Below the pieces are notes generated by a model that made no database searches, was not told the origin of the DNA, and worked only from the letters and a program-made list of their open reading frames with translations. The position numbers and the translations under genes were made by a program. A stretch of DNA of 12,956 nt, taken from the IMG/VR virus record IMGVR_UViG_2778261122_000005, positions 1-12,956 of that record; one strand, given 5' to 3'. This document shows positions 7,422-7,895 of the stretch, in pieces. Positions within the stretch are counted from its first letter, which is position 1; the number at the start of each line of letters is the position of its first letter. This DNA is from a virus (Duplodnaviria > Heunggongvirae > Uroviricota > Caudoviricetes).

Positions 7422-7895
7422 ATGTCAGAAAATGAACTGAAAAAAGCAATGTTCATTCAGCAACGATTGCAGATTCTCCACCTTGGTAAACACTATGATG
7501 AGTTCAGCGATTCTTACGTGTATGCCTGGGAGGCAGATGTTTATCCTTTCTTACAGGATGGCGACGGAAGCATTCCTACTCGCCCACATGAAATTTACGA
7601 AGAGTTTTTCGGCACATCTAAAAACAAAGCCCAAAAGATATACGATCGTCTGTGCAAAGCCTGGCACGACCGGGAGGCGCTCACATTCTATAAACTAGAA
7701 AGTGAATATGGTGTAACAAGTAGCAGCATGCACGGATGGACACGAAGTGATTTACTTCACATCTGCCGCTATCTGTATCTTGAGGGGTGTTTCGATAAAG
7801 ATTTCTGGGAAACATTACTGGAAAACGGAAAATGCCCAAGCGAAGCACTTTACCTTAGCGATGAATTTAATCGCGATACAGAGATCGACTTCTAA
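7422..7895 (+). CDS. Hypothetical acidic protein (157 aa), opposite-strand accessory/cargo gene
   Basis: Clean ATG with AGGAGG Shine-Dalgarno, ends at TAA followed directly by a bidirectional terminator. It is the only convincing plus-strand gene inside the island and is visibly more AT-rich than its neighbours. I recognise no family; it has no transmembrane segment and no obvious catalytic motif. Confidence 0.7.
   Translation: MSENELKKAMFIQQRLQILHLGKHYDEFSDSYVYAWEADVYPFLQDGDGSIPTRPHEIYEEFFGTSKNKAQKIYDRLCKAWHDREALTFYKLESEYGVTSSSMHGWTRSDLLHICRYLYLEGCFDKDFWETLLENGKCPSEALYLSDEFNRDTEIDF

Follow-up and report, generated by a model that had tools for sequence, protein, structure and literature searches.

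The window analysed here, that is, the whole 12,956-nt stretch of DNA at positions 1 to 12,956 of the IMG/VR virus record IMGVR_UViG_2778261122_000005, is a capsid-forming phage-inducible chromosomal island (cfPICI) of Escherichia coli, with a mean GC content of 51.0%. Between the terminator of its early operon and the promoter region of its capsid operon, a plus-strand gene encoding a 157-amino-acid (aa) protein (7422-7895), hereafter gene X, was singled out in a preliminary description of this DNA. Comparison of related islands revealed that this position is a true cargo hotspot, because conserved flanks there enclose a variable content that includes matches to defence candidates among the alternative occupants. 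The X protein belongs to an unnamed family for which searches of solved (PDB) and predicted viral structures gave no relative. On the basis of genomic association and domain architecture, we tentatively propose that X, as cargo of this hotspot, acts as a single-protein phage-conflict module, a proposal to which we attach somewhat less than even confidence.

A cargo hotspot beside the capsid operon

The borders of the cassette were drawn from an alignment of three islands, namely one with X, that of JP538 with an empty slot, and that of E. coli 042. The segment present in the window and absent from empty-slot islands covers approximately 7371-7898 and is bounded by A-runs, CTGAAAAAA on the left after a conserved CCTG and CTAAAAAAA on the right just before a hairpin. 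The left flank consists of the gene for the HK97-type major capsid protein (5958-7127, minus strand; Pfam Phage_capsid, E = 2e-71), followed by a conserved intergenic region of the backbone (7128-7370, minus strand) which holds the leader and promoter region of the capsid operon and forms the slot border in the alignment. The right flank is a 95-aa backbone gene (7931-8218, minus strand; PHROG match to phrog_1957, E = 1.3e-35) that is convergent with X and also present in empty-slot islands. The preliminary description placed X between the replication and head genes: it does adjoin the capsid side, whereas on the other side the phrog_1957 gene, a PerC gene and a gene for a single-stranded DNA-binding protein (SSB) intervene before the primase. 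It also credited X with a dedicated bidirectional terminator, which has to be abandoned. The hairpin found by a structure scan at 7899-7924 (10-bp stem, 6 G-C pairs) does lie directly 3' of the X stop codon, but it is retained in islands whose slot is empty as well as in those with other cargo, and its good U-run is on the minus strand, the plus-strand tail being only ATTATTCT. It therefore belongs to the backbone, as terminator of the early operon on the minus strand, and X simply adjoins it.

Megablast of the region retrieved E. coli chromosomes, within islands annotated with the same genes and an integrase. Among 5,426 complete E. coli genomes, the flanks were found in 156 and X in 9 only, at 98-99% nucleotide identity. 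An IMG/VR scan with the window's capsid protein gave 410 matches, and 77 of the best 80 had enough upstream sequence for the slot to be classified; this sample includes near-duplicates, so that the following proportions are rough. The slot was empty in 26 of the 77 islands (gap of 235-296 nt), while 30 carried a gene of the type found in E. coli 042, 8 carried X, 9 carried other cargo, one carried an insertion sequence and 3 were unresolved. The variable accessory slot anticipated from the single sequence was thus recovered across islands. Some have nothing there, and others carry one of at least eight cassettes unlike X, two of these cassettes matching defence candidates.

The commonest occupant, the 042-type gene, encodes a protein of 168-170 aa with a hydrophobic C-terminal tail and lies on the same strand as X. 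It was identified in E. coli 042 (L003:3285-3791), SMS-3-5, ST648 and others, as well as at loci L022-L024 and in the 30 IMG/VR islands mentioned above (among L065-L144). No Pfam or PADLOC match was obtained for its product, and homology with X was rejected (BLASTP E = 4.9). Four of the 30 islands add a second gene, of 258 aa (L069, L074) or 201 aa (L124, L135), which suggests a modular two-gene system. The other cargo includes a 414-aa protein with a DUF3775-like C-terminus, a membrane protein of 257-259 aa, a pair of 353 and 160 aa, a pair of 344 and 173 aa, and a 281-aa protein. Of these, the 344- and 173-aa pair (L142:1149-2703) matches the PADLOC system PDC-M18A/B (E = 5e-71 and 1e-22), and the 281-aa protein (L132:843-1685) matches Aga_Nuclease / pP_pnuc_1+2 (E = 1e-84). 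No Argonaute gene accompanies this Aga-type (pPIWI-associated) nuclease within the slot itself, and the remaining slot cassettes have no PADLOC match. Finally, a deletion remnant of X in E. coli TUM1886 (L025:600-790), in which the 5' untranslated region, the ribosome-binding site and ~45 nt from the start of X run directly into its final ~12 nt to leave a 15-codon open reading frame (ORF), shows that cargo can be lost in place.

Recent acquisition of X, as first suggested, was rejected by the diverged orthologues found in the same slot across Enterobacterales cfPICIs. An IMG/VR scan with an alignment of X retrieved 34 loci, in 27 of which X lies, as in the window, on the strand opposite to the capsid gene immediately upstream; X is there 49-60% identical, and the capsid protein 47-78% identical, to those of the window. 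Orthologues were also identified in cfPICIs of Salmonella Senftenberg (57% identity), Edwardsiella piscicida (54%), Serratia marcescens (61%) and other Enterobacteriaceae (53%), the overall range in Salmonella, Edwardsiella, Serratia and other Enterobacterales being 49-64%. The X-bearing cfPICIs of other hosts have differing replication modules, built on a RepA helicase, a D5-type primase or a DUF927 primase. Because diverged orthologues fill the same slot in islands with different replication modules, X is an old and recurrent occupant, often lost or replaced.

Furthermore, the cargo reassorts against its flanks: capsid identity and the presence of X do not track together. Among the IMG/VR islands classified, all those with a capsid protein 98-100% identical to that of the window are without X, whereas the E. 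coli islands with a 99%-identical X, in which the phrog_1957, PerC, portal and TerL products are also 98-100% identical, reach no more than 69-70% identity in the capsid protein and 59-60% in the connector. The pattern implies recombination near the slot. The window is also a mosaic in its capsid allele (5958-7127) when set against loci L032-L034 and L065-L091. As a separate observation, one cfPICI contains, between the capsid gene and X, a 120-aa minus-strand ORF (L041:7480-7842) with a run of 12 ARP tripeptide repeats (RPARPARPA...).

In the parts of the literature covered here, defence hotspots are described at the gpA-gpQ locus of P2 and the cos-proximal locus of P4 (Rousset et al. 2022, PMC9122126), where comparable slots yielded new systems, and immune cargo is described in PICIs (Fillol-Salom et al. 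2022, as cited in PMC10085698). The cfPICI slot resembles these hotspots in its conserved flanks, alternative cassettes, independent reassortment, some defence matches and many single genes without known function. It differs from them in its carrier, a cfPICI, and in its position between the early-operon terminator and the capsid-operon promoter, and X is not among the systems listed in those parts. Cargo hotspots in satellites are already known, but the portions of the cfPICI and other satellite literature covered make no mention of one adjoining the capsid gene. The view that this is a typical position for satellite cargo consequently finds no support there, as the PICI literature, to the extent covered, places the cargo of classical PICIs near the integrase/att site or after terS. 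In addition, the part consulted of a 2026 study of P2 and P4 reports no homologues of P2/P4 defence genes in cfPICIs. Independently of the role of X, cfPICIs have a compact and easily delimited cargo slot, containing mostly genes without known function and a few defence candidates. The material for testing is small, namely one gene with its native promoter, and the empty-slot islands are natural controls.

Gene X, its expression signals and its protein family

X is a genuine gene and no chance ORF, because it has 19 full-length homologues (52-63% identity), its profile matches 348 clusters defined at 50% identity (E <= 1e-3; 236 at E <= 1e-10), and its AlphaFold model is confident (pLDDT 90, pTM 0.86). 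Its product is indeed acidic and rich in aromatic residues, as first described, with an isoelectric point (pI) of 4.85, 29 D+E against 17 K+R, a net charge of about -12 and 15.9% F/W/Y. The strong ribosome-binding site noted at the same time was confirmed by reading the sequence, AGGAGG being located at 7409-7414 on the plus strand, 7 nt 5' of the ATG. The gene has a GC content of 42.8% (43.7% at third codon positions), lower than the window mean. Its description as more AT-rich than the flanks stands with respect to the capsid, terminase, PerC, SSB and primase genes (51-60%) and fails for the backbone neighbour at 7931-8218, which is similarly AT-rich (44.4%); low GC is thus not peculiar to X. 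It is a trait of the cargo and no sign of recency.

A putative sigma-70 promoter of X was located at 7352-7380 on the plus strand, with a -35 hexamer TTTACA (7352-7357), a 17-nt spacer and a -10-like hexamer TAAGCT (7375-7380). It straddles the slot border, the -35 belonging to the backbone and the -10-like hexamer to the cassette. The window's -10 was too weak for a consensus promoter scan and was not called. The 16-nt block ACAAATAATTTACAAA (window 7343-7358), compared in the window and at loci L021, L005, L029 and L026, does not vary upstream of X among cfPICIs of five genera, in contrast to the sequence around it, and it is kept in empty-slot islands too. Spaced 17-18 nt from TTTACA, the -10-like hexamer is TATTAT in Salmonella, TATTGT in Serratia, TATGGT in Edwardsiella and TATAGT in the P0194 islands. 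From this conservation, the -35/-10 pair is probably X's own sigma-70 promoter, predicted to be active, and the ACAAATAATTTACAAA block may act both as an operator/promoter element of the capsid operon and as the cargo's -35. The capsid operon would be served by a promoter-like site found on the minus strand (7304-7277).

The X family is spread over Gamma- and Alphaproteobacteria. Its members are mostly 145-160 residues long and ~15% aromatic, and they share the acidity of the window protein (median pI 4.95, 83% of members below 5.5, median net charge -8). The best-conserved positions, in window numbering, are A35, W36, P42, F63, F89, E93, R108, L111, R116, Y117, L120, P139 and E141, and no known catalytic motif is apparent in the family. 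The AlphaFold model is all-alpha, with nine helices. Its best structural matches are winged-helix domains, aligned over 54-62 residues at 2.0-2.8 A root mean square deviation; they include MotA, Fur/PerR, Z-alpha and MarR-like domains and are mostly of the protein-binding types RPA32C, Stn1 and kleisin C-termini.

The statement that X belongs to no recognisable family or fold was upheld by searches of Pfam, NCBIfam, PADLOC, PHROGs, PDB and the viral structure library BFVD, which gave no confident match, including to any housekeeping or structural phage protein. Pfam and NCBIfam contained no matching family and PHROGs returned noise only (E = 0.079 and 0.28), while sequence searches of the PDB, with X alone and with a 105-sequence profile, produced only chance-level matches. 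Against Pfam, 105 diverse members of the family gave scattered single matches and no shared family. The X model had no BFVD match with E < 3, and tblastn of X against 50,697 phage genomes retrieved nothing; this absence from phage genomes and viral structures argues against a phage counter-defence or structural gene.

Fusions were found in other members of the family, 27 of the 150 top cluster representatives (~18%) having N-terminal extensions. Assigned by reading the sequences, these extensions comprise 18 ribbon-helix-helix (RHH), 4 Phd/YefM and 2 MazE/AbrB domains, 2 HTH_43 winged helices and one Glyoxalase_8 N-terminus-like segment. A Pfam scan of ten longer representatives, nine of them extended, agreed with the assigned class in 8 of the 9 (PhdYeFM_antitox 4.9e-9, MazE_antitoxin 1.9e-6, RHH_1 3.7e-4, HTH_43 1.4e-19), some RHH matches lying below the Pfam cut-off. 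RHH, Phd/YefM and MazE are classic DNA-binding modules of type II antitoxins, and two family members bear the Joint Genome Institute (JGI) label "antitoxin MazE". The model of an RHH-fused member (pLDDT 92) displays an extended N-terminus/strand and two short helices, then the nine helices of X, and the RHH-fused relative P0050 gave no PADLOC match at E up to 0.01. The window protein starts directly with the X domain, and DNA-binding extensions occur in relatives only.

No partner gene was detected for the family. Fused forms have no conserved neighbour at the four loci looked up, neither solo nor fused forms have a conserved partner gene in any genomic context examined, and no cognate toxin gene adjoins the family at any locus examined. 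A conserved partner, whether a toxin or a small downstream ORF, was accordingly rejected, as the ORFs that lie downstream of X in Vibrio, Colwellia, Edwardsiella and Raoultella are mutually unrelated. An RHH of nearly the same type as the X-fused one is joined to a YfbU domain in P0204 and P0205 (233 aa); two unrelated helical domains, X and YfbU, thus share one RHH partner type. Homology between X and YfbU was itself rejected, with an hhalign probability of 0.2%, 1WPB missing from the fold-search lists and no member matching PF03887.

About 16 kinds of genomic context of the X family were examined singly, and mobile elements make up the majority (cfPICIs, integrase islands, plasmids and one PICI-like satellite); a genome scan with one family alignment (A2) gave 6 loci. 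In a PICI-like satellite of Raoultella planticola (L007), the X relative directly follows a DUF2971 protein (PADLOC PDC-S31, E = 6.7e-29). Another lies directly before an AbiD / PD-T4-5-like gene on a Microvirga plasmid, and a third lies 2 kb from a SIR2-like/HerA gene pair on a Colwellia contig. X relatives are also carried by an Enterobacter CP4-57-like island and by Vibrio integrase islands, one is found near a relaxase, and a 35-kb plasmid of Pleionea (L020) has two tblastn matches to the family, one at 6001-6456.

Several observations on these elements stand apart. One of the Pleionea matches is 2.2 kb from a RelE/ParE toxin gene, and a 155-aa hypothetical protein at 8170-8637 is a possible location of the second. 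The Raoultella satellite contains integrase, AlpA, AntA, a DUF927 primase and tail-fibre-like genes (Gp53-like_C, Caudo_TAP), and is flanked by Phage_portal_2 on one side and by Peptidase_S49, an HDPD head-decoration domain and Phage_cap_E on the other. It sits as if inserted in the head-gene cluster of a lambda-like prophage, "lambda-like" being our reading of the flanking families. Finally, an X homologue with 44% identity (L062:1568-2038, also at L059-L063) was considered as an occupant of the P2 hotspot and rejected, as it lies ~1.3 kb outside the integrase end and outside gpA-gpQ. The prophage is P2-like (Fels-2/SEN8-like), and the homologue, which is either integrase-att cargo or flanking host DNA, was not used as evidence.

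Possible roles of X

As a phage-conflict module, X would probably have a sigma-70 promoter of its own, directed against the backbone, which would allow it to be made while the island rests silent in the chromosome. Its product, predicted to be an acidic, all-alpha protein of the cytoplasm whose core tentatively resembles a winged helix and in which no catalytic motif is recognised, would bind a phage-made or phage-induced protein, whereupon infection would be blocked or the cell arrested, and host and island would be protected from phages that the island cannot use. The fused relatives, with RHH, Phd/YefM or MazE ahead of the X domain, would also repress their own promoter, as type II antitoxins do. 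Several lines of evidence point in this direction. X has the signs of an autonomous unit in an orientation opposite to the backbone, as had been noticed from the window: its ribosome-binding site is strong, its -35/-10 pair is kept across five genera, and its stop codon is closely followed by a hairpin. By association, some copies of X or its relatives are next to DUF2971 / PDC-S31, AbiD / PD-T4-5-like or SIR2-HerA genes.

An analogy may be drawn with YfbU, which is fused to the same RHH type and which, as a solo protein, is an abortive-infection system. This protein, Kamadhenu (PF03887), is a single-gene system of lactococcal plasmids, and Aristaios, a DUF2971 protein, is another single-gene abortive-infection system in Lactococcus (PMC11381338). 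Like X, Kamadhenu is a small all-helical single-gene module on a mobile element, and the YfbU and X domains are both found behind the same N-terminal RHH type (P0204 and P0205 for the former, P0050 and others for the latter). Unlike in a homologous pair, however, there is no detectable sequence relationship (hhalign 0.2%), and the resemblance is in architecture only.

Other findings weigh against a phage-conflict role. X matches no family of PADLOC-DB 2.0 at E up to 1, most of the other slot cassettes are without known function, and PDC-M18 itself has no more than candidate status. A helical protein of 157 residues without an enzymatic motif offers no obvious effector activity. Moreover, X relatives are found amid housekeeping genes in Oleiphilus and two Alphaproteobacteria, the consistent acidity of the family (median pI 4.95) and its antitoxin-type fusions would suit a neutraliser equally, and the recurrence of X in many diverged cfPICIs (27 of the 34 IMG/VR loci) could mean a service to the satellite.

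The principal alternative, which we consider unlikely, is that X is a free-standing antitoxin-like domain that neutralises a host toxin or defence effector encoded elsewhere, by which it would aid the satellite, and perhaps its helper, in establishing in new hosts. Antitoxins and immunity proteins are usually acidic, as is this family (83% of members below pI 5.5), and in the fused relatives the X domain takes the position of the toxin-binding part in a type II antitoxin, a domain order present in ~18% of the top representatives. The JGI label "antitoxin MazE" on two members and, as far as a model can tell, the mostly protein-binding character of the winged-helix-like matches (RPA32C, Stn1, kleisin C-termini) are consistent with such a role. 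By contrast, no cognate toxin was found beside solo or fused forms at the loci examined, X is absent from the 50,697 phage genomes, where counter-defence genes are common, and a globular domain of ~150 residues has little in common with the short, disordered tails by which classic antitoxins bind toxins. The window protein differs further from a type II antitoxin in having no DNA-binding domain and no adjacent toxin, and a folded C-terminal part of 150 residues takes the place of the short tail.

A role in the life cycle of the satellite, through helper interference, capture of helper tails or tuning of the switch between early and late operons, would account for the homologues beside the capsid gene in 27 of the 34 IMG/VR loci and in cfPICIs with different replication modules, and for the contact of X with the capsid-operon promoter region. 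We nevertheless judge it improbable. The slot is empty or otherwise filled in ~90% of close relatives, which indicates that X is dispensable for the island. In addition, one island retains only a deletion remnant of X, the family also occurs on plasmids, integrase islands and alphaproteobacterial chromosomes, and the cfPICI literature, in the parts covered, assigns no function to this position. The least likely of the explanations weighed, and one with little to recommend it, is that X regulates host or island genes as a transcription factor or nucleic-acid-binding protein through its winged-helix-like core, as the neighbouring PerC-family regulator might do. In the model, the best structural matches are winged-helix domains (MotA, Fur/PerR, Z-alpha, MarR-like), and R108 and R116, both ~90% conserved, would fall in the recognition helix if the helix order of the model is followed. 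However, a net charge of about -12 (family median -8) is unfavourable for DNA binding, and relatives that need to bind DNA add a separate RHH, Phd, MazE or winged helix-turn-helix domain, which suggests that the X domain itself does not bind DNA.

The phage-conflict proposal can be widened, at the cost of being more speculative still. It is possible, though less likely than not, that the X domain is a new and widespread single-protein conflict module (defence or toxin-antitoxin-like) with no partner gene and a fold unseen in the PDB and viral predicted structures searched, used solo or tethered to interchangeable antitoxin-type DNA-binding domains, and that the slot is a defence hotspot of ~10 cassette types, mostly without known function, that is unmentioned in the parts of the literature covered. 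In its genomic setting, X also recalls the morons of phages (lambda bor and lom; P2 old and tin), as an independent, lower-GC unit between backbone operons with a promoter and a terminator as bounds. It differs from them in that its carrier is a satellite and its terminator is borrowed from the backbone. If X were anti-phage or counter-defensive, a new family of hundreds of clusters, with no solved relative, would join the single-gene conflict systems. This would raise the question of the mechanism by which a helical protein of 157 residues and no catalytic motif acts, as well as the puzzle of its repeated joining to RHH, Phd and MazE domains without a toxin partner.

The island backbone

The remainder of the window is consistent with its assignment to the cfPICIs, as it encodes its own capsid, protease, portal, head-completion and connector proteins together with HNH, TerS and TerL packaging genes. 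All of these are on the minus strand: TerL (760-2421; Pfam TerL_ATPase/TerL_nuclease), TerS (2405-2902; Terminase_4 among the Pfam matches of the window), the HNH protein (3050-3490), the head-tail connector (3490-3786), the head-completion protein (3783-4121; Pfam Phage_HCP), the portal (4118-5431) and the HK97-type protease (5343-5903), the HNH, connector, portal and protease genes being delimited as ORFs. No tail or lysis genes were found within the 12.9-kb window. On the other side of the slot, and also on the minus strand, the PerC-family regulator of the backbone (8225-8518; Pfam PerC, E = 3e-35) is followed by the SSB (8522-8947), the DUF927 primase (9184-11310) and a DUF4222 protein (11307-11621), which were identified by library matches. 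The window stops ahead of any integrase or alpA, and close relatives carry an integrase at that end.

The first ~180 nt (7128-7305) of the intergenic region that holds the capsid-operon leader are almost wholly invariant in the four E. coli islands aligned. A search of the conserved leader for a structured RNA or a known RNA family detected neither, with no significant RNA fold (z = -1.66), 0 Rfam matches and no tRNA. Finally, X is not the only plus-strand gene, contrary to what had first been stated. A 58-aa RHH-like ORF (12607-12783) is also on the plus strand, with weak similarity to YlcI/YnfO and DUF3950 genes, which in related islands occupy that position on the same strand; the ORF probably encodes the divergent regulator of the island.

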